DNA of 64,000 nt from the NCBI RefSeq assembly GCF_002087085.1, contig NZ_MWQY01000001.1:186001-250000 (forward strand), given 5' to 3'. Below are positions 13,620 through 31,323 of the stretch, piece after piece. The first letter of the stretch is position 1. Each line of letters begins with the position of its first letter. The notes under the pieces were generated by a model. That model had not been told where the DNA came from. It did not search any database and saw only the letters and a program-made list of their open reading frames with translations. The position numbers were made by a program, and so were the translations under genes.

Positions 13620-14384
13620 TTACAGATCCAGCTCGATCGAGACCGGACAGTGGTCCGAACCCATCACATCCGCGTGGATAGAGGAGGATTTTACCGCCCC
13701 GGCAAAACCGTCGTTGACGCAGGCGTAGTCGATACGCCAGCCGATGTTCTTCGGCCTGGCTCCGGCACGATAGGACCACCAGGTGTAATTTTCGCCTTCA
13801 CTGGTGAACATCCGGAAGGTGTCGGTAAAACCGTCGGCGGTAAAGCTGTCCATCCAGGCCCGCTCCTCCGGAAGGTAGCCGGGGTTCTTTTCGTTCTGGT
13901 CGGGTCTTGCAAGGTCGATGGGCTTGTGGGCGATATTGTAGTCCCCGACGATGACGACGTTCTCCCCCGCGGCGACCCGTTCTTTCGCGGCTTCATGAAG
14001 GAAAGAGCAGAAATCCAGCTTGTAATCGAGCCTGGCCCCTTCGGGCTGGCTGTTGGGAAAATAGCAGTTGAACAGGGTAAACTTCGGGAAGGTGAGGACC
14101 AGTCCCCGGCCTTCGGAGTCGAACTCCTCCGCCCCCAGGGTATCCACCTTCAGGGGCTCCTCCCTGCTGTAGACTGAGACCCCGCTGTAGCCTTTCTTCT
14201 GAGCGCTGGCCCACAGGGCGGTGTAGCCCGCGGGGGAGATCAGCTCCTCATCCAGCTGTTCCGGCTGGGCCTTGGTCTCCTGCAGGGCGAGGATATCCGG
14301 CTGTATTCCGCCGAACCATTCCATAAGCCCCTTCTTTTGGGCCGCCCGAATACCATTGACGTTCCACGAGTAGATGTTAATCAA
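13620..14384 (-). CDS. xth: Exodeoxyribonuclease III / AP endonuclease
   Basis: SWNVNGIRA, LQETK, GDYNIAH, GWRIDY and SDHCP. Confidence 0.95.
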   Translation of the reverse strand: MINIYSWNVNGIRAAQKKGLMEWFGGIQPDILALQETKAQPEQLDEELISPAGYTALWASAQKKGYSGVSVYSREEPLKVDTLGAEEFDSEGRGLVLTFPKFTLFNCYFPNSQPEGARLDYKLDFCSFLHEAAKERVAAGENVVIVGDYNIAHKPIDLARPDQNEKNPGYLPEERAWMDSFTADGFTDTFRMFTSEGENYTWWSYRAGARPKNIGWRIDYACVNDGFAGAVKSSSIHADVMGSDHCPVSIELDL

Positions 14385-15108
14385 TTTTTTCTCCTGATTC
14401 TCTTTGTGCTTTTTTTATCAGTTTTTCCAGGCTGCCTGCCAGCTTATCCCGGGAAAAGGGTTTTCCATGGCCCGGATAGAAGTGTTCAGCGCCGCTCTGC
14501 AGAAGGTATCGCCAGCTTGTAAGCAGATCTTCCGGATCATCCGCAAAGGGTGGAACCACCGACCAGGGAAGAATGTTGAATGCCGCATCGCCGATGAAGG
14601 CGGCTCCATTCTCCAGCAACAGCGCTATGGACCCTCCTGAATGCCCGGGCATGGGAACGATCCTTCCGGGAATGCCGAAGTCCGACAGGTCCCTCTCGTC
14701 TGTTATAAGAATATCCGGCTGTACTGCTGTGAACTGTTTTCTTCCGGCCAGGATTGTGCCCGCCAGTTTTGATACGGCTTTCGAGTACAATCCGAGACCT
14801 TTGGGAAAGGGGGTTCTGCCGGAAAGCAGATGAGTTTCCTCGTAACGGGAGCAGCATACCGGGGCCCCGCTTGCCTCCCTGAGCGCCGCCAGGGATCCTG
14901 CGTGGTCGTAATGGGCGTGGGTCAGCAGGATAAGAGATATCTTCTTCGGTTCGAGACCTGCTTTGCTTGCGGCGGCCAGTATTTTCTGTTCCGATCCCGG
15001 AATACCCGTATCCACAAGAACCCCGGTATCCCCCGCTTTGATCAGGTAGACATGAGCATGGCCGATGGAAACAGGGTGTATCTCCAGGAAAGGTAAAACG
15101 GGCTGCAA
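14377..15108 (-). CDS. Metallo-beta-lactamase fold hydrolase
   Basis: THAHYDHAG, PGHSGG, FIGDA and PGHG. Start codon uncertain. Confidence 0.88.
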   Translation of the reverse strand: MQPVLPFLEIHPVSIGHAHVYLIKAGDTGVLVDTGIPGSEQKILAAASKAGLEPKKISLILLTHAHYDHAGSLAALREASGAPVCCSRYEETHLLSGRTPFPKGLGLYSKAVSKLAGTILAGRKQFTAVQPDILITDERDLSDFGIPGRIVPMPGHSGGSIALLLENGAAFIGDAAFNILPWSVVPPFADDPEDLLTSWRYLLQSGAEHFYPGHGKPFSRDKLAGSLEKLIKKAQRESGEKID

Positions 15109-15126: not shown

Positions 15127-16581
15127 TTAATAGTGGTGTCCAAGAACGATGAAGAGTTCATAATTCTCTCCTCCCCAGTCGCCCTGGTCGATAACCGCCT
15201 TCAAATCGATCCCAAGGGATGTTCTAATATAATATCCCCTGGCGAAAAAGGGAAACCCGATGGCCTCAAGCCCCAGGCCCATCTTGAAGTGCTTATCCGG
15301 ATCAAAGGCCGTATCCTGCTCCTTGACCCATCCGGCGTCGAAGAAGACCGATCCCTGTCCTTCCACAAAATCAGGGATTGTGAAGGCCCTCATGGTCAGA
15401 TCGGTATTGATGAATCCCCCGTATTCCACAGCCTCACCCATCTTCAAATCCCGGATGCCCCGGATATAACTGGCGGCCTCTTCCTCGAACTCGCCGTCGA
15501 ACTCGGCAAAGCCGGCCACCCTGCCGGAAACCATGAAGGGCCAGAAAAGAATCCTGAAGGGAAGGGGATAGAATCCGGAGAGGGAAGCCCTGGCATCCCG
15601 GTTCCAATAGAGGTGCTGCAGGTTCCAGGTGTTGGTGTTCTCGATCCGCAGATCCACTCCCTTTCTGAAGTTCCCGATCCAGTCCACCTGGCCGGCCGTC
15701 AGGAGCTGTCCGTAGCCGATTCCGGGTCCCTCCTTCTCCCGGGATATGGGTTTATCGAACTTGTAATCGATCTCCGTATAGATCCCAGGGGTATAGATGA
15801 ACTGGCCGAAACCGGGAAGGAAGAGGCCGGTGGAGAAATCCTCCGCCAGTTCCAGCCGGGAGGTAATCCAGTTTTTGTCTATATCGGTGCTCTCGTAGTT
15901 GTAACTCTCCCTGAAGCTCAGGGTGGGGGTGTAGTCTTTTATCGGAAGATCGACGCCCACGGAGGTGTAGGACTCAAGATCATGCTCCCCCGCCGTGTAT
16001 TCCCAGTAGGCTGCCGTGTCCCAGTGCCACTGATGCTCCAGCCACTGGAAGGGCAGGATGAACTCCAGCTCCAGACGGTTGTTCGTATCCCCATCCTGGC
16101 GTTCCCAGGCGACATCCAGGGCGAAGCGTTCCAGGGTTCCGAAGAGATTCAGGTCGCGGTACTTGAGAGTCAGGGAAAAACCGTTGTTGGAATCGTACTC
16201 GGGGATAGGGAGCACGATTATGTTCCAGCTGTCCTCGGTGTAGATGTCCAGGCGTACCGGGTAGTGTCCGCCGGTCTTTTCTCCAACTGAGTATTCAATC
16301 CGGGAGCTCTCCTTCAGCTGCCTCAGGTTCAGAAGCAGCTGCCGCTGTTCGGCTATAAAATTCTGCAGCTCGTTTTCGCTCTGAAAGGAGATCCCTGTTC
16401 TCAGGTCGCCGAGCTCCTTCATGAGTGCACCTTTTCGGGTGATTCCATCAATATGATAGTTGATTTCCTCCACCATATATGGGCCTTCGGAACTCCCCGG
16501 TTCCGGGGCCTGGGCGAAAAGGCCGCTGGTAAGGATCAGCAGAAGGGCGATACCAGGATAGAGTCGGAAAGCGGTTCTCAC
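15127..16581 (-). CDS. Outer-membrane beta-barrel protein, probable Omp85/BamA-TamA superfamily with one POTRA-like domain
   Basis: Signal peptide (GLFA|Q); POTRA-like region (I.GITRK..L.KEL); RDLNLFGT barrel start; YIRGIRD (VRGY-like); FFDAG; C-terminal strand ending in Y. Confidence 0.65.
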   Translation of the reverse strand: MRTAFRLYPGIALLLILTSGLFAQAPEPGSSEGPYMVEEINYHIDGITRKGALMKELGDLRTGISFQSENELQNFIAEQRQLLLNLRQLKESSRIEYSVGEKTGGHYPVRLDIYTEDSWNIIVLPIPEYDSNNGFSLTLKYRDLNLFGTLERFALDVAWERQDGDTNNRLELEFILPFQWLEHQWHWDTAAYWEYTAGEHDLESYTSVGVDLPIKDYTPTLSFRESYNYESTDIDKNWITSRLELAEDFSTGLFLPGFGQFIYTPGIYTEIDYKFDKPISREKEGPGIGYGQLLTAGQVDWIGNFRKGVDLRIENTNTWNLQHLYWNRDARASLSGFYPLPFRILFWPFMVSGRVAGFAEFDGEFEEEAASYIRGIRDLKMGEAVEYGGFINTDLTMRAFTIPDFVEGQGSVFFDAGWVKEQDTAFDPDKHFKMGLGLEAIGFPFFARGYYIRTSLGIDLKAVIDQGDWGGENYELFIVLGHHY

Positions 16582-16712
16582 GTACAGCTCCTTGAACAGT
16601 TCATGTCACTATCTATGTACCACAGGAAAGCAAAAAATCACAGTCCGCTCTTTTTTTCCATATTTTTGTATACGGTAAAATCAGGAGGATTTTTCGCCGG
16701 TTTACCCTGTAT

Positions 16713-18092
16713 ATGAAAGAAAAAATGCGTGCCGCTGTCTGCGGGGCGGGAATCGCTCTACTCTGTCTGCTTGTCGGCATGGAGATCCTCTCCTTTATCC
16801 GTGTAAAAAGCACTTTTATCGAACTCGGTGACCTTCTTCATACTCAGCATGGTGAACGCATGAAAGCTGTTCTGAACCTTGAAGAAGCTGTAAGCGCCGG
16901 TTTCGAGTGTACTGCGGAGGCCTTAAACGGGCTTGAGACGATAGAGCGTTCCCTGAGCGAATGCCTGTACGCCATGAACAGACAATTTTCTTCTGATCTT
17001 GCAGCTGTCCGCCGGGGACAGACAGTTCTGGCCGCAGCCCTGAAGGAGACAGACTTCAGGCCACAGGACCCCGGGGATGATCTGTTTGTGCAGTCCCTGT
17101 TCAGAAAGGGGCAGGATAGTTTCGCCGCAGAACGCTACGGAGAAGCCGCGGTCAGCATGTCGGAGGTGCTTTCTCTCGTGCCGGATTTCCATGAAGCGCG
17201 CCTGATCCGTGCCGCAGCGTTTTACCGGGAAAACCCTCTGGACTCCGGACGCCGGGAAGAGATCAGGGCCGATCTTGCTGTGGTCTTAACCAGGGAGCCT
17301 CATAACATCCTTGCCCTGGCGACCATGGGAAGTATTGCCCTTGAGGAACAGGACTGGCCGAGGGCGCGTCGGTACTGTCGGCACCTCATCGAAGTGGATG
17401 ACCGTAATATCGAGGCTGCCCGGATGTTCGTTGTCGCCTGCCGGGGGGAAGGCTGTATCGAGGAGGCTGAAGAAGAGATTACCCTGCTTTTACAGGATGA
17501 TCCGGACAATCCCCGCTACCTGCTGTACCGCGGTGAAGTGCTGGAGAATCAGAAGAAGTATGGCCAGGCCCTTGCTTCCTACGAGGCAGCCTGCAGGCGG
17601 GATCCTGCCTATTTTCCTGCGCTGCTCGGGGCAGCCCGCACGGCCGCAAATTCGGGAAACTACCCCCGTGCCAGGAAGCTTCTCAGCTCTCCTTCGGTTC
17701 CGAAGAATTATGAAACCTGCAGCCTGCTTGGGGAGTGCTGTATAAGGCTGGGCGAGACTGACGATGCAGTAAGCTGGTGGAAAAGGGCGGCTGCCTCCCT
17801 GACACTGAATACACCCGAGGATACAAAAAAGGCTGCGGATTGTTATCTGAAGATTGCCCGGTATTCTTCTGAAGCTGTCGACTTTGAAGGAGCCTTGAGG
17901 GCGGCGGCAAAGGGGCTTCGGCTTTCCGAAAATCCGGAGCTGCACCTGATCAGGGCAAAAGCCCTGCTGGAAACCGGTCGAAAGGACGAGGCACAGGAGG
18001 AACTGTCTCTGGTCTTTCAATCAGAGGAGGACCCTCAGCTGACCGAAGAGGCCCGGGAACTTCTTGAGCGTCTGGCAGGCGAAGATGGGTGA
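16713..18092 (+). CDS. Membrane-anchored tetratricopeptide repeat protein
   Basis: N-terminal hydrophobic helix, coiled-coil-like segment, then TPR-like repeats (YGQALASYEAACRRDPAY, ALLETGRKDEAQEEL). Confidence 0.82.
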   Translation: MKEKMRAAVCGAGIALLCLLVGMEILSFIRVKSTFIELGDLLHTQHGERMKAVLNLEEAVSAGFECTAEALNGLETIERSLSECLYAMNRQFSSDLAAVRRGQTVLAAALKETDFRPQDPGDDLFVQSLFRKGQDSFAAERYGEAAVSMSEVLSLVPDFHEARLIRAAAFYRENPLDSGRREEIRADLAVVLTREPHNILALATMGSIALEEQDWPRARRYCRHLIEVDDRNIEAARMFVVACRGEGCIEEAEEEITLLLQDDPDNPRYLLYRGEVLENQKKYGQALASYEAACRRDPAYFPALLGAARTAANSGNYPRARKLLSSPSVPKNYETCSLLGECCIRLGETDDAVSWWKRAAASLTLNTPEDTKKAADCYLKIARYSSEAVDFEGALRAAAKGLRLSENPELHLIRAKALLETGRKDEAQEELSLVFQSEEDPQLTEEARELLERLAGEDG

Positions 18093-19155
18093 TCCCTTAA
18101 CGCCCCTGCTGTGTCATCGCCTCCGGGGCTTCTGCTGTATTGCCCTGCTCCTCGTGGCGGGAAACCTGGAAGCCCTTGAGATCCATGTCGCTCCTCTGGT
18201 TGTGGAAAGCCTGAATGCGGGACCCGGTCTTCTTAAACAGAAGAATCCCTGTAAAGACCTTGTCCGCCTCCTGCACGACGGCGATCACCAGGGCGCTGTA
18301 TCCGTAACACTCCTTCCGGAGATGAAATACGGCGCTCCCCGCAGTTTTCTGGAAGCCGCTGAATTATGTGAGACCGTCGGTATCGACTATCTGCTGTACG
18401 GCTATATCAGGGAAGAGGAGTACAGCTGGGACTGCGAGATAAAGCTCTACGTCAGGGAAATGAATACAGTGGCAGAACTCTTTTTTTGCCGGGACGCTAC
18501 GGACCACTACGATCGGATGCTGGATGAGCTCAGCAGGAAGATCCTGGACTATTTTTATAGTGACGTGGGCCTTGCTCCTTATACACCGGCACCTGAACCG
18601 GACAGGAAGATCTTCTCCATACCCATCCATCCGGGATACTGGTCCCCCGGAGGAGAAGAGTTGGGAAAGGTGAGTATCGGGATCGGCCGGATAGAGTCGG
18701 GGGTCCTGTTTGTGCCGGTCTCGCCCCTGTGGTACCACGGGGATGTTCCCTGGGAGCTGCAGACCGGAGTCACCCTTTCGTATTCCCTGGCGACAAATGA
18801 CAAGGAGTATGAAAGCTTTCTGCTCCACAGTATGCGGATCAACCTGCCGCTGCTGGCGGCGGCGGAACTCAGGAATGGGCAGAGCATTGTCCTTGGCGGA
18901 GGCGTGAGCATGCAGTTCGACATCCTGAACCAGGACCGCCAGTACTACGGCAGCTACAGCGCCTTCAGTGCCGCCCCTGGAGTCTTTGTGGAGGCAGCTT
19001 ACCGCTACCGGCTGAATGACTCCTGGAAACTCGGACTTCGTACCGCCCTTGAGCTTGCCTTTTTTTCTGTACTTCAGAGCAATGTCGTTACCGGGGTGTA
19101 CGGATTATACGAGTTTGCGCCTCTGGAACCATCAATCGACGGGAGGAATCAATGA
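18085..19155 (+). CDS. Exported protein with a TolB_N/CsgG-like N-domain and a putative small C-terminal beta-barrel
   Basis: Signal-like LLLVAGNLEA|L; AAELCETVGIDYLLYGYI motif; alternating strands VFVEAAYRYRL..SWKLGL and VVTGVYGLYEF. Confidence 0.6.
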   Translation: MGDPLTPLLCHRLRGFCCIALLLVAGNLEALEIHVAPLVVESLNAGPGLLKQKNPCKDLVRLLHDGDHQGAVSVTLLPEMKYGAPRSFLEAAELCETVGIDYLLYGYIREEEYSWDCEIKLYVREMNTVAELFFCRDATDHYDRMLDELSRKILDYFYSDVGLAPYTPAPEPDRKIFSIPIHPGYWSPGGEELGKVSIGIGRIESGVLFVPVSPLWYHGDVPWELQTGVTLSYSLATNDKEYESFLLHSMRINLPLLAAAELRNGQSIVLGGGVSMQFDILNQDRQYYGSYSAFSAAPGVFVEAAYRYRLNDSWKLGLRTALELAFFSVLQSNVVTGVYGLYEFAPLEPSIDGRNQ

Positions 19156-19934
19156 AAAAGGGATGCCTGCTGCTTTGCGTGCTTATTTCGTGTGCCGGTT
19201 GCTCTGATGCTTTGCTGACAGAGATGGACCGTCTTGCCGCTGACCCTGAGGTCGTACCTCCGCGGGTAGAATCCTTCCAGCAGGAGCTGACGGTTTCCGT
19301 CAGCTGGGAGGAGGATGAGGCGGCGGATGAATATGTCCTCCGGCGTGCGGAAGACAGCGCGGGAGTCCTGAGCTACGAAATTTTATACCGGGGATCGGAG
19401 ACCCATTACCGGGACACTGATGTGGAAGATGAGGGACGCTACCTGTATACCCTGGCAAAGAAGAAGGGCAACCGGGAGTTCGGTCCATCCAGTCCGGTGC
19501 TGGGGGTGGGAAACGACTGCATCGGGGATATATGGGAGCCGAATAACACGAAAGAGCAGGCTGCAGGCCTGGAACACGAACTTGCTGCAAACAGTTTCTA
19601 TTACGAGGATGCCGTTACCCACAGTACGGTTCAGGATACCGACTGGTACAAAATAACCATTCCGCCGCGCTGCAGCGCCTCTATCGTGGTGATCCAGTCG
19701 GACCCGATACCGTCTCAGAACTCATCGCATCTGAGTTATCTGGTGGAAGGGACCGGGCCCGCGGAGACCATCGCCAGCGGCGTTTTGTATCCCCTTGAGA
19801 ACACGGGCTTAACGACGGCAAGCTTCCTGTTCTGCATACGCCCCAGGGCGGAGGAGTGTCGGGAAGAACTGACCTTGAGCGGAGGTGCTGTCGTCAAATA
19901 CAGCCTGCGGATCAGCAGGATTGATTTTCTATGA
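19152..19934 (+). CDS. Lipoprotein with FN3-like and PPC-like (EPNN..DxDWY) domains
   Basis: MKK-hydrophobic-CAGC lipobox; VSWE...ADEYVLRR...YRD...YLYT; DIWEPNNTKEQA...DTDWY; ATGA overlaps on both sides. Confidence 0.72.
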   Translation: MKKGCLLLCVLISCAGCSDALLTEMDRLAADPEVVPPRVESFQQELTVSVSWEEDEAADEYVLRRAEDSAGVLSYEILYRGSETHYRDTDVEDEGRYLYTLAKKKGNREFGPSSPVLGVGNDCIGDIWEPNNTKEQAAGLEHELAANSFYYEDAVTHSTVQDTDWYKITIPPRCSASIVVIQSDPIPSQNSSHLSYLVEGTGPAETIASGVLYPLENTGLTTASFLFCIRPRAEECREELTLSGGAVVKYSLRISRIDFL

Positions 19935-20623
19935 GAATGCCGCGGGTGAAAAAGAATGTACAGAGCTGGAGCCTCCTGTCAGCAGTTCCTGTGCTGCTGA
20001 GTCTGATGATGCTCGCCTGTCCGGTTACTCCGAAACAGGCTGATGATGCTCTGGTCGGCAAAGATGGATTTGAAGAGGTCGAGGAGCTTTTTCTCCAGGG
20101 GGATGAGGAGGGGACGGTCCTCTTCACGACCAGTGATTCAGCCTGGTGGAGCCCCCTGGGCTATACCCTGTGGGCCCTGAACGGAGAGGTCCAGCAACCT
20201 TTTGTCTTTCGTGAAGTGAAGTGCAGCAAGATCTCCGGCGCCGCCGGAGCGGGATACGGTATTGTTTTCTGCCACTATGAGAGCAGCGATCCGGATACGG
20301 GAGAGACTATGCTGACGGTGATGATAAACACCCTGGGGGAGTACATCCTGGGCGAGGTCGTGGAGGACAGGTTTTACGGGTTTGTCCCCTGGAGGGAATC
20401 GGAGTATCTGAAGAAGGGATACAACCAGGGAAATGTCGTGGGGCTGCGCTGGGATTCCGGAGAGTCCCGTTTTGAACTGAGTTTCAACGGAACCCCCGAA
20501 ATCACCTTCTCCGATGAGGTCGAACCGCTGCACGGAGGGGGAGAAAACGGGTACCTCGTTGTCATTTCCCCTGCGGATATCTTTCCGGCGAATCCTGTTC
20601 AGGTGGTTTTTACCGAGCAGTAG
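19931..20623 (+). CDS. Lipoprotein with ConA/DUF1080-like beta-sandwich
   Basis: LMMLA|C lipobox; GYGIVF, VMINTLGEY, GNVVGLRW and FELSFNG pattern. Confidence 0.65.
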   Translation: MRMPRVKKNVQSWSLLSAVPVLLSLMMLACPVTPKQADDALVGKDGFEEVEELFLQGDEEGTVLFTTSDSAWWSPLGYTLWALNGEVQQPFVFREVKCSKISGAAGAGYGIVFCHYESSDPDTGETMLTVMINTLGEYILGEVVEDRFYGFVPWRESEYLKKGYNQGNVVGLRWDSGESRFELSFNGTPEITFSDEVEPLHGGGENGYLVVISPADIFPANPVQVVFTEQ

Positions 20624-20652
20624 TGGAAAAAGTGAAAATAAGGAAAACGTGC

Positions 20653-23600
20653 ATGAACATAAAAAAACGGCTGACAGCCTTTCTGTTGCTTGAATGCTTT
20701 CTTGTCGGGACTGTGGCACCACCGGTGTATGCCGAGGCGCCGCGACAGGAGGTGCTGCCCGGCACTCCATGCAAATGGACCGTGCCGGTTCAGGAGGAAT
20801 CCGGCTTTCTGGGGGAGTTCTGTGTCAGCCCTGAATCCGGGGGAGAGTATATCTCCGATACGGTCTCCCTTCTTGTCCCGCCGGGGGCGGTGGAAAATCC
20901 CGTGATGATTCGAATCGAAAAGTTGAGTCTGGTGGAGGGGCTGCCTGCCGGTATGTCGAACCTCAGCTCCGGCGCGGCGGGGTACCGTTTTCTGCCGGAA
21001 AACCAGAGTTTCCTGAGGGCGGTAAAGGTGACCCTGCCTTTTGACCGGAGGATCCTTGAGTCGGAAACAGCCCTCTCCAACCTCTATACCTGGTATTACG
21101 ACAGGCGGGAATCCCGCTGGAGGAGGCTTGAACGCTGGAGGGTCGATCGACAAAAGGCGACGATAACCAGCCTGACGACCCACTTTACCGATATGATAAC
21201 TTCCACCCTGACCCTGCCGGAGGGGCCGCAGGCTGTTGATTTTAATGTAAACAGCATAAAGGACCTGAAGGCTGCGGACCCCACGGCGGGTGTCCCACGG
21301 ATTCAGGGACTTGATGCAGCCGGCATGGGAGATGCGGGGTTCTCGCTGCCCTTACGGGTACCTACGGGCAGGGGAGCAGTGACGCCGAAACTCGCCCTGA
21401 CCTACAGCAGTGAACATCAGAACGGCTGGATGGGACGGGGATTCGATATCGGGGTTTCATCGGTTGCCATAGATACACGTTTCGGATTACCGGAGTACGG
21501 CGGAGAAGACATCTTCGCAATAGATGGAGAAGAGCTTGTTGCCACCGGAGAGATGGAGGATGGAGCGTTAAAATATCAGCGTCGAAAAGAGGGCAGTTTT
21601 GAAAGAATCCTCTGGTTTGTGAACGATGACCGGCGCTGGGAAATTACGGACAAAAATGGTACCACCCGGGTGTATGGAACAACAGACAGCTGGATCGGAC
21701 CGGACCGCAGGGACCGTACAAAAATCTATTGCTGGTATTTGAGCAGGGTGATCGACGCCAACGGGAATACCGCGGATTACATGTATACCCGGGATGAGAT
21801 AAACAGCGCTGTCTATCTGCGGGAGATCCGTTATTCGGGACACGAAGAGACCGGCGAAGAGGGCCTCTACCGGGTACGCTTTGACCTGGACCTCAGCAGC
21901 GGTGCCCGGCCGGACCGGCGCAGCGAGGCCCGGGGGGGCTTTGTCTCGAAGCTTGCAGGGCTGTTGCGGGGGGTGGAGATCTCCTGTGACGGATTGCTTT
22001 TCCGGCGCTATGAGTTCAGCTATGAACAGAACATATTCGGTCAGACCCAGCTGATCGAAACAGCCGAGTATGACGGAGGGGATCAGCGTTTCTACTGCTA
22101 TGGATTTGAGTATCACAGCCCGAAGCAGCAGGAAGACGGTTATACCGGGTTTGAGGAGACCTCGGTCAGCCTTGGGTATCCGGAGCAGGTTCCTGCCCTG
22201 CAGAAGGATCGCTCCCTTAGCCTCGGAGGGAGCCTCTATACGGGGGTTACCCTGCGGCGACCGAAGATCGATTTCTGGGGAGGCCTTAAATGGGTCGTTG
22301 CCGCCAACTTCGGACTGCGGGCGGGAATGTCCTCATCCTCCGGCAGGACCGAGATTTCTCTTCTGGACCTGAGCGGTGATGGCCTCGCGGATATCGTGCT
22401 CTCCAAGGGAAAAAAGGCTGTCTGTATTCCCAACCGGGGGGACTACTTTGATTTTGAGAATACCATCAATTTCGGACGCCTGCCGCGGGAGGTAAACGAG
22501 AATGACTCGACTTCCTGCGATATAGGGCTTTCTGTCGGGGTTTTCCCCCTGTCCGGATCGACCACCTGGCAGTGGGGTAGTTCAAAAACGAAAAGCAGTT
22601 ACAGTGATCTGGACGGCGACGGCTTTGTGGATTTTATAGCCTCTGATGAATCAGGGTACAGGAAAAATCAGCAGGGTACCGGTTTTACGGATGGACAGCT
22701 TCGCACATCCGGGGTCTCCGGTGAGATTGTCGAGATTTCCGAAAACGAACTCAGGAGCCTTGAAAACAGCTATTATATTCAGGAACCCCTCAGGCGCTGG
22801 AAGGCTTATCGCTCAGGAACAGTCAGAGTGGAGAATGAGTTTTCCTGTGCCGATACCGCCTGGGCGGATCAGCGGAACGAAAGCGCCTGGACCCGCACTC
22901 CGGATACCGCGCACAATGTCTCCTTTACCCGGGCCGGGCCGTCCGAGGATGCTCAGACAATTGATACTGTTTCAATAAATGCCGGAGAATCAATCTACTT
23001 TCACCTGGATACCAGGGGGGAGCCCCGGGGAGATGATCTTACCTGGCGTTCAAGGGTGAGTTATCGGGATATCGAGTATTTTGAGGACTGGGAACAGTAC
23101 GGCGATTTCCTGACGCCACCCTACGAGTATGAACACCTTCCTGACAGTGATTTTGATGAAATCTACAACTGGACCTGTATAACAGATCCGAATGATTCAG
23201 AGCAGACGATCAGCGTCTATCACCGCATAAGCAACTGGAAAGATATCGCGAAAAGCGATGCAGGGGTCGCGAATGCCCTGATTCGGGAAGGCTTTATCAG
23301 CCTGCCGCGGATTCCCGCACAGCTGTATCAGCGTCTCATGACCATGGCGGGGACACGAATGGAGGTCAGGGACCTCATGTCCGGCGGCCGCAAGGTTTAT
23401 CCGTCGGAACGATACCGGCTGTTCTATGCTTATACCCTGGCCCCGGAGGAGAACATGTATTACCGCACAGGCACAGATGGAGAGGCTGTTGCCCGGCAGT
23501 ATCTTGATGACCTGTGCGATCAGGTCGGAACCGCAGCGGTGCGAAACCTGCTTCGTCCAAGCTTCCTTGAAGGTGAACGTATGTATCTTGAACACGACGG

Positions 23601-26600
23601 TTCCGCCCGCTCGTATACCCGCTCTGCTCCTGCTGTTTTCCTGACAGCTGAAATAATAGATGCCGAAGATAGCACCGGAGTCCTCGGGGAACAGAGTCTT
23701 TCCGGCGGGATTGTCCTTGACCGTACCCATGATTCAGCGGGTGAAGAGCTTCTCTATTCCCATGTTCTTATCCCCGGTGAATCGGGATTTCGCCTCGTAC
23801 GGCGGGAGGGAAATACCGATACAGTGCTCGATTCAGCCCGGGTAAACAGCAGCGCTTCCGGCATCAGTGTCGATCTTCCGGAAGACGGTGTTTCCCGTCG
23901 CTTTGTACTGGGCGGCGGCACCTCCCTGATCAGAAGGCTCCCGGAAGCGGCTTTTGAAGGGGTTTTGACAGAAAGTCTGCTTGCAGGAGAGGAGTTCAGG
24001 GCGGATGATCTATTTCCCCTTGACGGCAGCCTCTGGAACGCCGTTTTAGCAGAAGCTGACCTGACCGCGGCGGAAGAGGCGGAGTACGCCGCGGCCTTTG
24101 TGTACGATGAGCAGAACGATTCCTACACCCCGCAGCCTGATATGGATGATGATCTGTATCTCTCATTCCTTAAGCTCCTGGACCGGCAGTCTGACAACGG
24201 ACTTTCTGCTCTGGATACGCTTCCTGAGGAGAATGCCTTTCGTATCGTTCTGTTCAGTACGGAGGAGTACGCCGTGTTTCTGTCCGCTCAGGATCCCGAT
24301 ACGGCCGCCGTCATACAGGACTGCTTTACCCGGTATTCCGAGCCCGAGGCTGTACATTGGTACGCCCTGTCCGAACATTTGAGTTCTCACGAGTCATCAG
24401 CCATGGTCGATGCTCTCCGGCGTTACCGGGTAATGGATGAGCTTTTACCCTGGTACCGGGATGACGGGGAGTATTACCTGCTCGACGAGGCCGTTAGCTC
24501 AGGCAGTGATGAAGCGAACCAGATTTCAGCAGCCCTTGAAAAAGTCGGGCTGAGCGTATGGACGCGTCTTGAACGGAGCATACGCTACAGCTCCGACGGG
24601 AGTTTCAGTGTGGAAGATATCGGGACTGTCGATGCTGAAGGGCTTGAAGCCTTTTGTCCCCTTCCGACTGAAGGACCGGCAGGCCTGGTCCCGGCCGGAA
24701 GGATCCGGATTCCTGTGTACGATTATGAAGGCGTGTGCCGGCTGAAGGTGATCGATATACGTCAGGCGGATTCGGAAATCGATTATTCCCCTGAGAACAG
24801 GGTGGATTACTCATTTCTGGAGAGCATCGATCTTGGTGATTTTGATGGTGGTGCAGGAGGCTCGTCGAGCAACGTTGACACCAGCGCCGTGGAAAACACA
24901 GAATACCATCAGGAAAGCTTTGCAGGCGGCACATATGGCTGGTTTTACGGGGCCTGGACAGGGAACTACCTCTGGGATGAGAATGAGCTTTTCAAAGCCC
25001 GGGCCGATGAACACAGCCCGGATCAGTATACTGAAACCTCTACGCCGCCGCCCCCCAGTTTTCTTCCCCTCAACAAAAATGAAAAAGATGAAAACCGGAT
25101 CATCAGGACGGACGGAAAAGAGGAGATGCGCGAAGTTTCCCCTGAGGCCTGGATCGGTGTGGACAACAGCTATTCGGATTCCGAATGGCGTGATGACGGT
25201 TCGGTCAGCTACACAGAATATACCTTTGCTCCCTATATTGACGGTCAGTTCTTTCATCCGGCCCGGGTGGGAGGCGACAGCTACTACCGAGCACCCGGGA
25301 CCGGAACCATGGTCGGGGACGGCTGCCTCTCGACTTTACGAAAAGGAAAAAACTCAGGACAGGACAACAGTTTTTCCATTGCAGGCGGCCTGTATCTGGG
25401 CAGCCGGAATAGCAGTGAATCCTGGCTGTACAAGGATTTCCTGGATATTAACGGCGACTGCTACCCGGATGTAATCTACTTTCCATCGGAGGGTGGAAAA
25501 TCGGTGCAGGTAATGTACGGTGCTGTCGATGAGGATGGGGCGTTCTCTCTCGGAGATACCGTCCCCTGGACTGCCGCATTCGACTATCTCAGCTTTAGCG
25601 AGAACAACACTGAGGGCTTCGGTGCTTCACCCCTGGCAGCGGTTGGGGCAATTAAGAACCTCTATATCGACGGAAAACAGGTGTCCTCGGGAATCGCAGC
25701 TCCCTTAGGCCTCAGTATCAACGGAACGGCCTCCTCGACCACCCGGCGTATGGCTCTGCGGGACATCAACGGCGACGGGCTTCCTGACCAGCTGCGTCGG
25801 GACGGAACCGGAGCACTCCTGGCTGCAATCAATACCGGAGAAGGTTTTGCTCCCGTGAATACTTTTGCAGGAGGCCTTGATGTTGACTTTTTTACCAGCC
25901 CCGGCGATTTTACAGGTGCAACTGATTCCCGGGGACTTTATTACGGAAATGTCGGGAGCTTCGGCGGGACCGTATCGGTGGGGTTCGGGAACCCCAGCGT
26001 TTCCATCGGCGCAAGCTGCGGCCTGACCGGGAATGCCAACCGAAGCTTGTTCCGTCTGGCGGATGTGAACGGCGACGGACTGCCTGATCAGGTGGCAAAA
26101 CGAGCTGAAGATGACTACTTTGAGGTTCTGTTTAACCTTGGTGACTCCTTTGCATCAGAGAGTGTCAGAATTTACCGGGACGACTGGACTAATCTGGACT
26201 TAAAAGAGGCTATGCGGGAATCCCTGAACAGCCAGATATCTTCTGCAATCAATACCTTTACCGGTCTGTCCGTGCCGACCCGTCTTCCGGGGTTTGACAT
26301 CGATCCGGCTTCCCTGGAGTTTGAAGACAGGCTTGGAATAGAACTGAATCCTTTCAACATCGATGATACCCTGGAGTATGCTGCCGGTCTCTCTCTTTCT
26401 CTCAATTCTTCTCTGACCATTTCCATTCCCCTGTGGTATCCGGTTCTCAGCTTCGACATCTCCCCCGGGGTAAACGGATCCTATGTCAATACTGCGGCGA
26501 CTCTGAAGTTTCAGGATATTACCGGGGACGGGCTGCCGGATCACGTACTCCGGGTCCCCGGAGAAAACAGGGTGCGGGTCATGGAGAACAGGCTGGGGCA

Positions 26601-29600
26601 TGCGGGGCTCCTGAAAACCATACGATCCCCCTTCGGAGGGGTCACAGAAATCAGCTACAGAAGAGCAGGCAACACCGTCGCCATGCCGCAGAACAGGTGG
26701 GTTCCGGAAAGGATCAGCGTGAATGACGGCTTCCAGGACGATCCCGACAGACCGGGAGAGCATTGTTACGTACAGTCCTTTGAGTTCAGAGATGGTTTCT
26801 ATGACCGGCGGGAACGCCTTTTTTGCGGATTCGGTACAGTCAGAATCACCCGGTTCGAATCCCGCCAGTCCAGCGATCCCGGTGACTGGGACATTGCTTC
26901 GGTAACGGAGGACACCTATGCCCTTAACCCCGCTTATGACGATAACATCTATCGCCGGGGGCTCCTTACCCGCCGCGCCGTTTACGACAGACACCCGGAG
27001 GATTCCGGGGCTCTTCTTTACAGCGAAAAGATCTGTACGTATGACCTGGTTCCCCTTACAGACAGGAGTCGCTTTCCGCAGCTCTCCAGGGAGACCGAAC
27101 GGCTCTATTCTCCGGAAGACCAGACCTGCATCGAAAAGCTGATCGAATACCGCAGGTACAATGAGTACGGCAACGTGGAACTTCTAACCGACTATGGCTC
27201 GGCCCGCGACCCTGACGATGACATGACAGCGGAGATTTTCTACGCTGAACCGGACTCAGGCCGCTACCTGCATGCCCATCCCCAATCCATTGAAGTGCGG
27301 GGCAGCGATGATACCCTGCTGCGCCGCCGTTTCGGGGGTTACGACAGATCCCGGGGAAACCTGATCAGACTGGACCAGTACAGCAGCGAAAACCGGTGGT
27401 CCACCCATTTGCTGGAGTGGGATCGCTATGGGAATCTGATCCGCATGGAAGGCCCCCGGGGACATGCTGTTGAGATAGACTATGATGACGCGGTCCATAC
27501 CTACCCGGTGAGCATCCGCAGTCTGAATGACCGGGTCGCCTTTACCCCGAGCTATTCCAGCTCATTGGAGTGGGATTACCGTTACGGCAAAGAGCTTGTC
27601 CTGACCGATCAGAACGCCAATGTACAGACCCGTTCGTATGACAATTTCGGGCGGCTCACGGAAGTATGGAGTCCCTATGATACCGGAACCCGGCCGGCAG
27701 TCGCCTTTGATTACCGCAGCGATGCATTCCCCTGGCAGGCGGTGACTCTCAACAAGGTAAGTCACGATCCTGTCTCCGAAGACGACCTGCTGACAGCCGT
27801 AACCAGCGACGGGCTGGGGCGGATTATCCAGACAGCGAGGGAAGGAGAGGTTCATACCAAAGGGACCGGCTGGAACTGCTCAGGCGCTATAGTCTTTGAC
27901 GGAGCAGGGCGTGTCGTGCAGGAAGGGCAAACGGTCTTTACGGGGGGAACGGGCGAATTTTTTTCAAACCTTCCGCCCCTGGCGGGCCTCAAGAATCCAA
28001 CCGGCACAAGCTACGACCCCCTGGACCGGGTAGTCAGTATCGTGCTGCCCGATGATCCTGAGGACCCGGAGGATGACGCAATTATCTCGGTCAGCTACCG
28101 GGTGGAAGCGGCCAATCTGCTGGAGATAAAAACAGACCCCCTGGGAAATATCACCGAAACAATCAAGGACCCCCGGGGAAACATCCGGGAACTGAGAAAG
28201 AAGGCCCCCGGGGGAGAGCTCCTGAAGAGGGCAAGCTATGAGTACTCAGCCTTGAACGAGCTGATCCGCAGCCTTGAATACCAGCTGGAAACAGGAATAT
28301 CATATCCCGTGGACTACGCCTACGATCTGGCAGGCCGAAGAACCCTCATCGAAAGCCCGGACGCCGGGAGAATTACCTTTGAGTATGATGAAGCCGGTAA
28401 CCCGTTAAAAAAGGTGGATTCCAGGCTGCGGGCAAAAGGACAATCCATCCGCTACAGCTACGACGGACACAACCGGCTCATCCGAATAGAATATCCTGAA
28501 ACGGCAGACACCACATTTGAATACGGCACAGGCAGCCAGACTGATGAGAACCAGGCCGGGCGCCTTGTACGGCGGAGCGACTCCTCCGGTACCATCGAGT
28601 ACCGCTACGGAAAACTCGGTGAAGTGCTTTTTGCGGGCCGCAGCTTAAATCGCCTCTCCCCCGGAGCCCCTGCGAAGAGTGCGGAGACAGGCTTTGTCTG
28701 CGACTACCTGGGTCGCCTTGAATCAATTACGTACCCGGATACGGAGGTCGTCAGCTACAGCTACACCGCCGGCGGCCAGGTAAATCACGTGGAAGGCGTC
28801 AGCAAAGGAACGACCACCGTATACATAGAAGAGATCGGCTACGACGAGTACGGACAGCGGGTATATATGGAGTACGGCAACAAAGTTGTAACCGAGTACA
28901 GCTATAATCCCTGGAGGCGCTGGCTCGACACCATCGTAACCACCAATCCCGGCGGCTGCCGGGAGTATCAGAACATCGAGTACAGTTTTGACCCCGTGGG
29001 TAACATCGAGGGCTACAGAAACGAGGTCTACGGTTACAGAACCGAACAACAGTACAGCTACGACGCCCTGAACCAGCTTGTGAGTGCAGGCGGGACCTAC
29101 GAACATACCCCCTACAACACCCAGGTTGACTATACCTCCCGTTACAGCCAGGAGTATGACTTTGATTCCCTGGGGAACTTCAGCCGAAAGACCTCGAGTC
29201 AAGGCTACTCACCGAACCGAACCCCCATGGGTTCTCTGAATTACAACCTTGAGTATCGCTACTGGGAGGGAAAATCCCACAGGGTACAGTGGGTCGGCAA
29301 TACCCACTACAGCTACGACGCCAATGGAAACATAATAGAAGAACGGGAAGGCGGCCCCTCAGTCGAAGCAACCGCCGGAATCTCTGCCCTGGTGAAGGAC
29401 GGAGTCTTGCGATCGGTTAACCGCGGCTTTGCCCTGATACGGAATCCCGATGAGAGCGAAGAGACCGTCGCCATGCGAAGCTATGAGTGGGACGAGGAGA
29501 ACCGCCTGACCGGCTACGCTGACAGGCGGGTGAACATGGCCTACACCTATGACGCCGATAACCAGCGGACAGTGAAGTACCACATACAGGCAGGAGAAGA

Positions 29601-30660
29601 GACCCTCTATTTTGACCAGTTCTGGCAGGGGGTAAACGAGGACAGCGACTTCCGCCAGTCCAAGCACATCTACCTGGGGGAAACGCGCATTGCAACACGT
29701 TTAAACCTGGAATCCCGGAACGGAAGTACCGATAACAGCTATGAACTTGCGAACACCTACTACTACCATCCGGATCATCTGGGAAGCGCCCATTTCGTGA
29801 CCGACCGGCATGGAGGCCGGTACGAGCACATGGAATACACGCCTTACGGAGAGCTGTGGGAGGAACAGGTATCCGACAGCCACGACATGATCCCCTTCCG
29901 CTTTACCGCAAAGGAGTGGGACGAAGAGACCGGGCTGTATTACTACGGTGCCAGGTACCTTGATCCCAAGCGGGGGAGGTGGTTGAGTGCGGATCCGGCG
30001 GGACCGGAACTGGGGGATCCGAACAGGGAGGGGTTTTCTATTGTAGAAGCGGCGAATTGGTATAGTTATGTGAGTAATAATCCGGTGATGTATGTTGATC
30101 CTACGGGATTAGAAAGCGCCGATGCAGCAAAACATTGGTACAACGCAATCTATGAACAGAATAAGGGATGGGAAATAACTCAAGATTATGGCTCTGCTGA
30201 AATGGCATCAATGGGATACTACCCAAAATCTAATGGGATTCATACAGGTGTCGATCTGAAGAAGACAGATGACTTAGGAAATAACGTAACAACAGGTACA
30301 CCTATTTTTCCGGATCGACCGGGTAAAATTAAATATATTAGAGATGAAGATCCAGGCTGTGGATTTGGTAAGTATGTCGGAATTGAAAGTGAGGATGGAT
30401 CTAATATTGAGGTACTTGCTCACTTAGATTCCATCGCTCCTGAAATTAGAGTAGGTTTCTACGTTGATAAAACGACTTCTGTGGGAACAGGTGGAAATAC
30501 TGGGAATTCAACAGGGCCACATTTACATAAACAAGTACAGCGAGATGTTCTAAAAAATGGAAGGACTCCTGGGATGGGTGCTGATGGAAATGTCGTTCAA
30601 AGTATGAGTAATTATGACAGAATTACTATTCCAGTATCAAAATCATGGTTTATGAGGTAA
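20653..30660 (+). CDS. Giant TcB-TcC-like Rhs polymorphic toxin: signal peptide, ZU5-like, SpvB, FG-GAP, TcdB-midN, YD repeats, Rhs core, M23 peptidase tip
   Basis: SpvB-like GDAGFSLPLRVPTGRGAVTPKLALTYSS; six DxxGD repeats; DGFYDRRERLFCGFG; YD repeats; YYYHPDHLGS...ETGLYYYGARYLDP...NPVMYVDPTGL; then HTGVD and GPHLH. ATG 20653 preferred over GTG 20623. Confidence 0.93.
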   Translation: MNIKKRLTAFLLLECFLVGTVAPPVYAEAPRQEVLPGTPCKWTVPVQEESGFLGEFCVSPESGGEYISDTVSLLVPPGAVENPVMIRIEKLSLVEGLPAGMSNLSSGAAGYRFLPENQSFLRAVKVTLPFDRRILESETALSNLYTWYYDRRESRWRRLERWRVDRQKATITSLTTHFTDMITSTLTLPEGPQAVDFNVNSIKDLKAADPTAGVPRIQGLDAAGMGDAGFSLPLRVPTGRGAVTPKLALTYSSEHQNGWMGRGFDIGVSSVAIDTRFGLPEYGGEDIFAIDGEELVATGEMEDGALKYQRRKEGSFERILWFVNDDRRWEITDKNGTTRVYGTTDSWIGPDRRDRTKIYCWYLSRVIDANGNTADYMYTRDEINSAVYLREIRYSGHEETGEEGLYRVRFDLDLSSGARPDRRSEARGGFVSKLAGLLRGVEISCDGLLFRRYEFSYEQNIFGQTQLIETAEYDGGDQRFYCYGFEYHSPKQQEDGYTGFEETSVSLGYPEQVPALQKDRSLSLGGSLYTGVTLRRPKIDFWGGLKWVVAANFGLRAGMSSSSGRTEISLLDLSGDGLADIVLSKGKKAVCIPNRGDYFDFENTINFGRLPREVNENDSTSCDIGLSVGVFPLSGSTTWQWGSSKTKSSYSDLDGDGFVDFIASDESGYRKNQQGTGFTDGQLRTSGVSGEIVEISENELRSLENSYYIQEPLRRWKAYRSGTVRVENEFSCADTAWADQRNESAWTRTPDTAHNVSFTRAGPSEDAQTIDTVSINAGESIYFHLDTRGEPRGDDLTWRSRVSYRDIEYFEDWEQYGDFLTPPYEYEHLPDSDFDEIYNWTCITDPNDSEQTISVYHRISNWKDIAKSDAGVANALIREGFISLPRIPAQLYQRLMTMAGTRMEVRDLMSGGRKVYPSERYRLFYAYTLAPEENMYYRTGTDGEAVARQYLDDLCDQVGTAAVRNLLRPSFLEGERMYLEHDGSARSYTRSAPAVFLTAEIIDAEDSTGVLGEQSLSGGIVLDRTHDSAGEELLYSHVLIPGESGFRLVRREGNTDTVLDSARVNSSASGISVDLPEDGVSRRFVLGGGTSLIRRLPEAAFEGVLTESLLAGEEFRADDLFPLDGSLWNAVLAEADLTAAEEAEYAAAFVYDEQNDSYTPQPDMDDDLYLSFLKLLDRQSDNGLSALDTLPEENAFRIVLFSTEEYAVFLSAQDPDTAAVIQDCFTRYSEPEAVHWYALSEHLSSHESSAMVDALRRYRVMDELLPWYRDDGEYYLLDEAVSSGSDEANQISAALEKVGLSVWTRLERSIRYSSDGSFSVEDIGTVDAEGLEAFCPLPTEGPAGLVPAGRIRIPVYDYEGVCRLKVIDIRQADSEIDYSPENRVDYSFLESIDLGDFDGGAGGSSSNVDTSAVENTEYHQESFAGGTYGWFYGAWTGNYLWDENELFKARADEHSPDQYTETSTPPPPSFLPLNKNEKDENRIIRTDGKEEMREVSPEAWIGVDNSYSDSEWRDDGSVSYTEYTFAPYIDGQFFHPARVGGDSYYRAPGTGTMVGDGCLSTLRKGKNSGQDNSFSIAGGLYLGSRNSSESWLYKDFLDINGDCYPDVIYFPSEGGKSVQVMYGAVDEDGAFSLGDTVPWTAAFDYLSFSENNTEGFGASPLAAVGAIKNLYIDGKQVSSGIAAPLGLSINGTASSTTRRMALRDINGDGLPDQLRRDGTGALLAAINTGEGFAPVNTFAGGLDVDFFTSPGDFTGATDSRGLYYGNVGSFGGTVSVGFGNPSVSIGASCGLTGNANRSLFRLADVNGDGLPDQVAKRAEDDYFEVLFNLGDSFASESVRIYRDDWTNLDLKEAMRESLNSQISSAINTFTGLSVPTRLPGFDIDPASLEFEDRLGIELNPFNIDDTLEYAAGLSLSLNSSLTISIPLWYPVLSFDISPGVNGSYVNTAATLKFQDITGDGLPDHVLRVPGENRVRVMENRLGHAGLLKTIRSPFGGVTEISYRRAGNTVAMPQNRWVPERISVNDGFQDDPDRPGEHCYVQSFEFRDGFYDRRERLFCGFGTVRITRFESRQSSDPGDWDIASVTEDTYALNPAYDDNIYRRGLLTRRAVYDRHPEDSGALLYSEKICTYDLVPLTDRSRFPQLSRETERLYSPEDQTCIEKLIEYRRYNEYGNVELLTDYGSARDPDDDMTAEIFYAEPDSGRYLHAHPQSIEVRGSDDTLLRRRFGGYDRSRGNLIRLDQYSSENRWSTHLLEWDRYGNLIRMEGPRGHAVEIDYDDAVHTYPVSIRSLNDRVAFTPSYSSSLEWDYRYGKELVLTDQNANVQTRSYDNFGRLTEVWSPYDTGTRPAVAFDYRSDAFPWQAVTLNKVSHDPVSEDDLLTAVTSDGLGRIIQTAREGEVHTKGTGWNCSGAIVFDGAGRVVQEGQTVFTGGTGEFFSNLPPLAGLKNPTGTSYDPLDRVVSIVLPDDPEDPEDDAIISVSYRVEAANLLEIKTDPLGNITETIKDPRGNIRELRKKAPGGELLKRASYEYSALNELIRSLEYQLETGISYPVDYAYDLAGRRTLIESPDAGRITFEYDEAGNPLKKVDSRLRAKGQSIRYSYDGHNRLIRIEYPETADTTFEYGTGSQTDENQAGRLVRRSDSSGTIEYRYGKLGEVLFAGRSLNRLSPGAPAKSAETGFVCDYLGRLESITYPDTEVVSYSYTAGGQVNHVEGVSKGTTTVYIEEIGYDEYGQRVYMEYGNKVVTEYSYNPWRRWLDTIVTTNPGGCREYQNIEYSFDPVGNIEGYRNEVYGYRTEQQYSYDALNQLVSAGGTYEHTPYNTQVDYTSRYSQEYDFDSLGNFSRKTSSQGYSPNRTPMGSLNYNLEYRYWEGKSHRVQWVGNTHYSYDANGNIIEEREGGPSVEATAGISALVKDGVLRSVNRGFALIRNPDESEETVAMRSYEWDEENRLTGYADRRVNMAYTYDADNQRTVKYHIQAGEETLYFDQFWQGVNEDSDFRQSKHIYLGETRIATRLNLESRNGSTDNSYELANTYYYHPDHLGSAHFVTDRHGGRYEHMEYTPYGELWEEQVSDSHDMIPFRFTAKEWDEETGLYYYGARYLDPKRGRWLSADPAGPELGDPNREGFSIVEAANWYSYVSNNPVMYVDPTGLESADAAKHWYNAIYEQNKGWEITQDYGSAEMASMGYYPKSNGIHTGVDLKKTDDLGNNVTTGTPIFPDRPGKIKYIRDEDPGCGFGKYVGIESEDGSNIEVLAHLDSIAPEIRVGFYVDKTTSVGTGGNTGNSTGPHLHKQVQRDVLKNGRTPGMGADGNVVQSMSNYDRITIPVSKSWFMR

Positions 30661-30663
30661 CAA

Positions 30664-31284
30664 ATGAAAGCATTGAAAATTTCTACCATTGTTGTATTTC
30701 TATTTTTAGCTACCGCATGTACTGAAGCCGATGAATCAAACCGTTCTACAGAAGTCGCAGAGCTAAAAGCAAAGGTTTACAATCTCCAGTCTGAAAATGA
30801 AAAACTGAAAGAGCGTAATGAAGAATTAACTACTGCCAATTCAACTCTAATCAAGGAGAAGAGTAGTCTATACAACCCTTTTTCTGGTAGTGGAAATCCT
30901 TTTAAATCCTTCCTGTTTTCCAACTCAACATCTTTTCCTTTTGGATATCTACAGGTTACAGGTTACTTCGAAGAAATTTTGATCTCAGATGTTGATAATG
31001 GATTAGAAGGACTTTGTCCGTTCTTTGTTGTTAATGAGATGGATTCAGATTTAAGTAACTACTTTTGGTCAATGATAAACAAGGGTAATACGTTCAATCG
31101 AAATATCGATGATCATATAGGTCTTTCTCTCAATCTTGATGATACACCAGAGATCATCATTGATGAACTGAAATCGAGTAGTAAGGAAATCACTGTCATC
31201 GGCTATCTAAGAGATTTAGAACTTGGTGGAAATATGACGTTGTGTAATCAGTATTTTACTCCCTTGGCAGTAATTTCCCCATAA
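30664..31284 (+). CDS. Lipoprotein, putative cognate immunity protein
   Basis: Starts 3 nt after the toxin stop; AT-rich like the toxin tip; FLATA|C lipobox followed by a coiled coil. Confidence 0.7.
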   Translation: MKALKISTIVVFLFLATACTEADESNRSTEVAELKAKVYNLQSENEKLKERNEELTTANSTLIKEKSSLYNPFSGSGNPFKSFLFSNSTSFPFGYLQVTGYFEEILISDVDNGLEGLCPFFVVNEMDSDLSNYFWSMINKGNTFNRNIDDHIGLSLNLDDTPEIIIDELKSSSKEITVIGYLRDLELGGNMTLCNQYFTPLAVISP

Positions 31285-31299
31285 TAACCGTATTACACA

Positions 31300-31323
31300 G
31301 CATCCCGGAATTCTCCGGGATGC
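31300..31323 (+). terminator. Stem-loop closing the toxin operon
   Basis: GCATCCCGGA-attc-TCCGGGATGC, a perfect 10-bp stem 15 nt after the stop; no clear U-tract. Confidence 0.55.

Follow-up and report, generated by a model that had tools for sequence, protein, structure and literature searches.

Six co-oriented genes encoding a giant Rhs toxin, four envelope proteins and an immunity-like lipoprotein lie in a 64,000-nucleotide stretch of contig NZ_MWQY01000001.1 (assembly GCF_002087085.1, positions 186,001 to 250,000 of the forward strand), referred to below as the window and used for all coordinates. The four genes upstream of the toxin and the way in which the toxin may leave the cell are the subject here. 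The upstream genes are called A (16713 to 18092), B (18085 to 19155), C (19152 to 19934) and D (19931 to 20623); they are followed by the toxin gene (20653 to 30660; 3,335 aa) and the immunity-like gene (30664 to 31284), all on the forward strand. E denotes an additional lipoprotein encountered at other loci, G and L numbers denote genomes and loci, and contigs are written in the form G000:C18 (distinct from gene C), with G000 being the source genome (97% complete). The start codon of B (ATG at 18085) falls inside A, ATGA overlaps occur at 19152 and 19931, the stop of D at 20623 is followed by the toxin ATG at 20653, and the toxin stop at 30660 by the ATG of the immunity-like gene at 30664. 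Each of the six proteins displays a single hydrophobic N-terminal stretch, as does the product of a divergent Omp85/POTRA-like gene (15127 to 16581, reverse strand), with no later window above a Kyte–Doolittle value of 2.0. The original prediction for this DNA had described six overlapping or nearly abutting genes, each with a signal peptide, anchor or lipobox, and every open reading frame (ORF) and junction was recovered as described. Its further claim that the cassette ends in a hairpin was sustained in part: a true 10-bp palindrome, with one near-copy elsewhere in the genome, lies downstream at 31300 to 31323, but it lacks a T-run and is not among the calls of a terminator scan.

The toxin opens with a Sec signal peptide and a putative ZU5-like domain, and searches of Pfam and NCBIfam retrieved SpvB, FG-GAP, TcdB_midN, RHS (YD repeats), Rhs core and C-terminal Peptidase_M23 domains, with a long insert in the FG-GAP propeller. 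Its identity as an Rhs protein is given by PF05593 and TIGR03696, both above cut-off, and by a core that ends in PxxxxDPxG. Here this motif reads DPTG (30097 to 30108, forward strand; residue 3144) and marks the boundary of an exchangeable tip. An HF[TS] motif precedes SpvB in 36 of 37 toxin N-termini and is present here as HFT (21181 to 21189, forward strand), which we take from its motif class to be a putative ZU5-type autoproteolysis site; residues 28–216 match no Pfam family, ZU5 included. No PAAR domain was matched in the toxin by Pfam or NCBIfam, and neither a TPS domain nor a C-terminal sorting domain of the type IX secretion system (T9SS) by Pfam; in a genome-wide T9SS search the controls gave no signal. 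The toxin architecture is already in print. Zhang et al. 2012, in the portion of the paper covered (PMC3482391), describe a TcdB/TcaC class that combines a signal peptide, SpvB, an integrin-like propeller and RHS, with spirochaetes among the hosts, and the term M23 is absent from the part of the main text considered.

The toxin tip (30109 to 30660, forward strand) matches PF01551 at 47.7 bits against a cut-off of 28.7 and contains HxxxD and HxH motifs, and is probably a peptidoglycan endopeptidase. Past the core motif the GC content falls from 55% to 39% in the tip and 35% in the gene that follows. Among 15 tips compared there was one similar pair only, and in a Pfam scan of 13 tips M23 was found in this tip alone, with one other tip above a cut-off. 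Four public sequencing runs contain near-identical DNA, and in all four the bin from 30264 to 30927 is uncovered; moreover, one contig bridges 30102 to 31292 through 1,349 different letters. The tip and the immunity-like gene are thus replaced together in near-identical strains. The downstream lipoprotein belongs to no confident Pfam or NCBIfam family (best Atlas relative, 0.83), and its position, lipobox, GC content and exchange with the tip make it a probable periplasmic immunity partner. A tip predicted to cut the cell wall suggests bacterial targets. Several small contigs of the same genome (G000:C36, C39, C40, C43 and C48) hold Rhs core-tip fragments that look like an orphan-tip array. 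At the orthologous locus of a relative (L016:9383-11731, on G002:C6), the start of the toxin gene is broken by about 2 kb of other DNA with a 443-aa ORF.

The four upstream genes all encode envelope proteins, in agreement with the anchored TPR protein, putative barrel and two lipoproteins originally proposed. Gene A, identified by alignment and TPR matches in Pfam, combines an N-terminal anchor or signal, a predicted coiled segment and TPR repeats, and its relatives range from 200 to 570 aa. The AlphaFold model of B (pLDDT 83.5) places, behind a signal peptide, a TolB-N/CsgG/PelC-like domain at about residues 30–165 and an eight-stranded outer-membrane β-barrel at about 171–345. The former resembles TolB (Z 11.6, root-mean-square deviation (rmsd) 2.6, 117 residues aligned), and the latter is of NspA/OmpA-like form (NspA: Z 18.6, rmsd 2.6, 150 aligned). 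C is a lipoprotein whose lipobox Cys17 is invariant across the alignment; its N-terminal domain is FN3-like, as judged by a weak match to 3mpc in the PDB (E 0.025), and is followed by a second domain without assignment. D is likewise a lipoprotein (lipobox Cys at least 90% conserved), and its model (pLDDT 90.6) adopts a concanavalin-A-like jelly-roll close to CBM66 (Z 15.6, rmsd 2.7, 145 aligned), a common fold whose likeness by itself would indicate no function. B, C, D and the Omp85-like protein match no Pfam or NCBIfam family, and profiles of B, C and D retrieved nothing significant from PDB sequences. At E 0.001 the D profile collected 1,641 clusters, a number that fell to 173 at 1e-30; the 10 clusters examined were nameless or "hypothetical". 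A homologue of D with 79% identity occurs in Marispirochaeta sp.

Conservation was surveyed across 401 genomes of the phylum and across 381 genomes of the class Spirochaetia. C served as the query for the collection scan, the alignment of D being too variable, and the locus tallies omit two partial D matches in unrelated settings (L024 and L025) and the duplicates L026–L028, L031, L095, L100 and L108. In the phylum set, full-length C was found in the class Spirochaetia only. Of the 381 class genomes 35 have C, and 32 of these also carry SpvB, a domain present in 42 genomes of the class. SpvB lies within 5 kb on the same strand at 30 of 38 C loci. Among the remaining eight, at least four stop at a contig edge (G296, G446, G476 and G523) and one is a C–D pair without toxin (G255:C9). 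Viewed from the toxin, C is within 5 kb at 30 of 50 SpvB loci. Toxin genes were also present at 15 of 16 metagenome loci, some of them duplicates, on contigs with at least 2.5 kb downstream, and the related loci that bear names are spirochaetal except for one from an unclassified bacterium. The source genome itself contains a second A-B-C-D-toxin cassette (L015, on contig C33) at 27–36% identity. A is the first cassette gene in most loci. The closest association with the toxin is shown by D, which stands directly upstream of it even at loci without A-B-C (L092, L093 and L102).

The linkage between C and SpvB bears out the proposal that the upstream genes constitute a dedicated partner module of variable-tip SpvB-Rhs toxins; their homologues are not mostly unlinked to Rhs genes, which had been named as the outcome that would speak against it. 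The accessory cassette A–D is genuine and conserved, seems not to have been described before, belongs with a toxin class already known, and is linked to an established secretion family. Variants of the cassette were also seen. At L088:5658-10279, L049:5705-8269, L145 and L147, C consists of numerous FN3-like repeats or exists in duplicate, with D at L088 not followed by a toxin, and C–D pairs at L039/L129 and L089 have long downstream sequence with no toxin gene.

The secretion family is that of type II secretion systems (T2SS). Upstream of A, many loci carry genes for a secretin, T2SSE, T2SSF and T2SSG, as well as for E, a small lipoprotein with CarboxypepD_reg and TPR domains. A GspD-like secretin is present in 34 of the 35 genomes with C, against a background of 101 in the 381 class genomes, and in 38 of the 42 genomes with SpvB. 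G011, a complete genome, is the only one with C in which no secretin was found; gspG was not matched there either, and its toxin is in four ORF pieces with B truncated and A absent, possibly through sequencing error. In 15 of the 35 genomes with C, spanning 8 of the 15 C-bearing families, the distance between C and the secretin is at most 25 kb. The secretin there mostly belongs to a gspDEFG-type cluster, and it may be upstream and co-oriented, divergent, downstream or inside the operon. Narrower groups follow the same pattern: 4 of 9 genomes in genus g35 and 2 of 17 in family f17 have C, and in both groups precisely these genomes have the secretin. On metagenome contigs with at least 5 kb upstream, T2SS genes were found in 7 of 14 (some duplicates). 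The original prediction could match the module to no named secretion system; the cassette in fact co-occurs with, and often adjoins, a type II secretion-like cluster.

That prediction had also pictured the locus as self-contained, with A–D, with or without the Omp85-like gene, exporting or displaying the toxin alone, and the T2SS would then be merely a frequent neighbour. A–D do accompany the toxin away from the T2SS, at both G000 copies among others, and all four are envelope proteins. Eight-stranded barrels of the NspA/OmpA type do not allow the passage of proteins, and as modelled the B barrel would be too narrow for an export channel, with no toxin-wide channel predicted within A–D. Because of this and the co-occurrence with a type II-like cluster, which in the source genome sits on another contig (C18), the label "self-contained" is unsupported. 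The Omp85-like gene was read as such from Atlas language-model features (0.97 to Omp85/POTRA clusters) and matched no Pfam or NCBIfam family. It is directly adjacent to the cassette in two close relatives only (L016 and L017), plus the metagenome copies L114/L115, and lies 3.2 kb from C in one treponemal lineage (L047, L149 and L150), the latter a point in favour of its involvement. None was detected at the second cassette of G000 or at other long loci. Its distribution is why it is treated as probably a local chromosomal neighbour and not a conserved part of the system. Beyond it in the window (13620 to 15108) are exonuclease III-like and metallo-β-lactamase-fold genes that look like housekeeping backbone. 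With the secretin retained in nearly every C genome, autonomous export by A–D appears quite improbable.

In the source genome the sole T2SS-like cluster is found on contig C18, which encodes GspD, E, F and G at 36–58% identity to the toxin-linked versions, along with weaker matches to K-like, L-like and lipoprotein E genes. GspG scores 123.3 bits against TIGR01710 (cut-off 88.85) and also matches PF08334. The secretin is above the PF00263 cut-off, with PilQ and GspD models scoring about equally. The best models for E and F are gspE and gspF, with scores short of the equivalog thresholds; orthologues clear the Pfam thresholds for T2SSE and T2SSF. D, E and F all fall below proteobacterial NCBIfam cut-offs. 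K-, L-, M- and C-like genes and minor pseudopilins were placed by position and N-terminal motif, with only a weak GspM match (E 0.0011), and just one pseudopilin-like gene was found besides the K-like gene. A prepilin peptidase (PF01478, above cut-off) is encoded on G000:C20. A type IVa pilus was considered for this cluster and rejected, the PilT retraction ATPase not being found: in a six-frame search of G000 at E 1e-3, the C18 ATPase retrieved itself only.

The C18 neighbourhood contains an Rhs gene of its own. At L091:505-10862 (G000:C18; same layout in L112, G002), tatA-like, tatC and tatB-like genes are divergent from gspD and accompanied by a radical SAM/SPASM enzyme whose best match, PapB-like, stays below cut-off. 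A 266-aa ORF is also present, as is a DUF6531-YD Rhs protein of 2,026 aa that has a Cys/Asp-rich leader and a signal of twin-arginine-like type. This is possibly a second Rhs type beside the same T2SS, Tat-routed and enzyme-modified. In a genome without C (L111, G469:C31), a YD protein of F5/8 type (3,392 aa) and an Rhs of SpvB/TcdB type, in split form, lie within 17 kb of the secretin.

These observations point, with some reserve, to Sec followed by a T2SS-type secretin exit as the probable route, with A–D as cargo-specific helpers and D as the closest partner. The Rhs protein would cross the inner membrane via Sec, for which it has the signal peptide, and in the periplasm would fold so that a Tc B/C-like shell encloses its tip, the downstream lipoprotein meanwhile guarding the producer against the M23 activity. 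Exit would then occur through the GspD-like secretin of the C18 cluster, a passage suggested by co-occurrence and linkage. D may act as an adaptor or surface tether; B and C could form an outer-membrane anchor and A an inner-membrane scaffold. Autoproteolysis at the ZU5-type (HFT) and DPxG (DPTG) sites would finally free shell and tip. Tips swapped between strains would serve bacterial competition, with peptidoglycan as the presumed target in this case.

Several points weigh against this route. Both export and binding are predicted from genomics. A folded 360-kDa Rhs shell would be larger than established T2SS substrates. Co-divergence between C and the secretin was not significant (rho 0.25 over 15 loci, with 378 of 5000 permutations as high), and Fisher tests of the co-occurrence overstate it, as the genomes share ancestry and so are not independent. 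With 67 of the 101 secretin genomes lacking C, the T2SS is not reserved for this toxin, nor is a full T2SS universal, given the complete genomes of genus g35 described below. C-D-toxin loci without adjacent A or B also exist (L144 and L148–L150). Finally, two toxins of full length occur together with D and E in the complete genome G096, where searches for A, B, C, the secretin, gspG and gspF found nothing.

Full toxins in a genome without a detected secretin are what would be expected if the protein had no dedicated channel, being released by outer-membrane vesicles or lysis, or if it were a surface adhesin, with A–D as chaperones or tethers and the T2SS link reflecting a shared island of conflict genes. 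SpvB moreover occurs in 126 of the 401 phylum genomes, mostly without full-length C, and other Rhs types adjoin the same T2SS. The section of PMC3747143 considered describes YD proteins of treponemes as possible adhesins for carbohydrates. Set against this, the secretin linkage survives several rearrangements in 8 families, extending even to a secretin gene within the operon, and tips that vary, are low in GC and are paired with a downstream gene are consistent with toxins. Release or display of this kind consequently seems a distant prospect.

The secretin inside the operon comes from genus g35, four genomes of which have E-A-B-C-secretin-D-toxin in one tight run. At 400 aa the g35 secretin is short; it carries a separate signal peptide, and its alignment to the full protein is confined to residues 357–728. 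Of the two examined for these T2SS genes, both complete, G270 (tested for all of gspE, gspF and gspG) lacked any match, and G215 lacked one for gspE; G195 scored positive for E and F in those searches. The g35 form is either a pseudopilus-free exporter or a remnant.

Taken as an exporter, it would imply that the secretin, lipoprotein E and A–D are needed and the pseudopilus motor is not, with A–D docking and driving the toxin in a distinct apparatus often found beside a T2SS. Joint absence of A, B, C and the secretin in G096 is in line with this arrangement. The evidence comes from a single genus and so from one event, which may be a decaying remnant; at all other tested loci the secretin sits in a full gsp cluster, and no energy source is evident among A–E. 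We therefore regard a secretin-only route as rather unlikely. Similarly doubtful is the broader notion that A–E plus a secretin represent a novel type of export apparatus for giant Rhs shells, built as an add-on to a spirochaete T2SS, which in one genus would operate with a short secretin and without pseudopilus, ATPase or platform protein.

Comparison with known systems places the favoured Sec and secretin route in context. The spirochaete cluster shares with the T2SS its secretin, ATPase, platform protein, GspG pseudopilin and prepilin peptidase, as well as K/L/M-like genes by position, and differs in D, E and F scores under proteobacterial cut-offs, few pseudopilins, lipoprotein E, toxin-specific accessories and the secretin-only reduced form. 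In the portions of these papers covered, Spirochaetes are added to the phyla with a T2SS by Denise et al. 2019 (PMC6668835), and the GspD of Leptospira is the object of study (PMC7941034). For Acinetobacter, T2SS chaperones specific to particular substrates have been reported (PMC4713064). The closest parallel is provided by Rhs families linked to gspG in Xanthomonas and Ralstonia, for which T2SS export was likewise predicted from gene linkage and stated to be functionally unconfirmed in the part of the preprint considered (bioRxiv 10.1101/2025.05.08.652813). Relative to those families, as far as they are described there, the spirochaete system involves a 3,300-aa SpvB/ZU5-type protein, a whole gsp cluster or lone secretin, and four or five dedicated envelope genes.

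Among toxin systems, the B-C shell of Tc (ABC) toxins has the same fused SpvB, FG-GAP, TcdB_midN, YD repeats and core cleavage motif, whereas the spirochaete protein adds a Sec signal peptide, an immunity-like gene and a cell-wall-cutting tip. There is no TcA-sized gene in the cassette, and PF18276 (TcA) found no match in G000, the control genomes being equally silent. PAAR-Rhs proteins of the type VI secretion system (T6SS) and CdiAB share the polymorphic tips, paired immunity genes and orphan tip cassettes. The originally noted lack of T6SS parts in the window and of PAAR in the toxin extends to the genome for Hcp and PAAR, which (PF05638 and PF05488) were not matched there (controls positive in 1 and 3 of 14; VgrG not searched). 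Unlike CdiAB, the toxin has no TPS domain, and no conserved adjacent TpsB partner was present at the loci examined. The TcdB/TcaC toxins, in the sections of PMC3482391 covered, possess the same signal peptide, SpvB, propeller, RHS and variable tips with immunity genes, and ZU5 is among their associated peptidases, an N-terminal ZU5 autopeptidase being frequent in the class without being required; those sections name TcdB as the sole associated component and give no outer-membrane channel, no A–D or E and no secretin link. Treponemal YD/RHS genes have been noted as possible adhesins or toxins (PMC3747143 and PMC8049484) and appear in a microarray table (PMC7586716), and a survey of treponeme genomes listed RHS/YD genes and no complete secretion system (PMC8049484), in each case within the part of the source considered. 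In the literature searched, no description of A–D, E or the spirochaete secretin-Rhs link was found; supplements of PMC3482391 and PMC6668835 may list loci.

How SpvB/Rhs toxins that bear a signal peptide cross the outer membrane without a T6SS or TcA is an open problem, for which this locus offers a candidate channel and five helper genes. T2SS export of Rhs proteins has so far been predicted from gene linkage only, and the natural variants observed among spirochaetes (full cluster, secretin only and none) make the question directly testable. As judged from gene content and arrangement, the spirochaete toxin, its four unstudied envelope genes and the T2SS point to an undescribed export route for very large toxins. 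If correct, this would raise the size limit for secretin cargo and would give the spirochaetes of sediments and animal guts, treponemes included, a defined interbacterial weapon.

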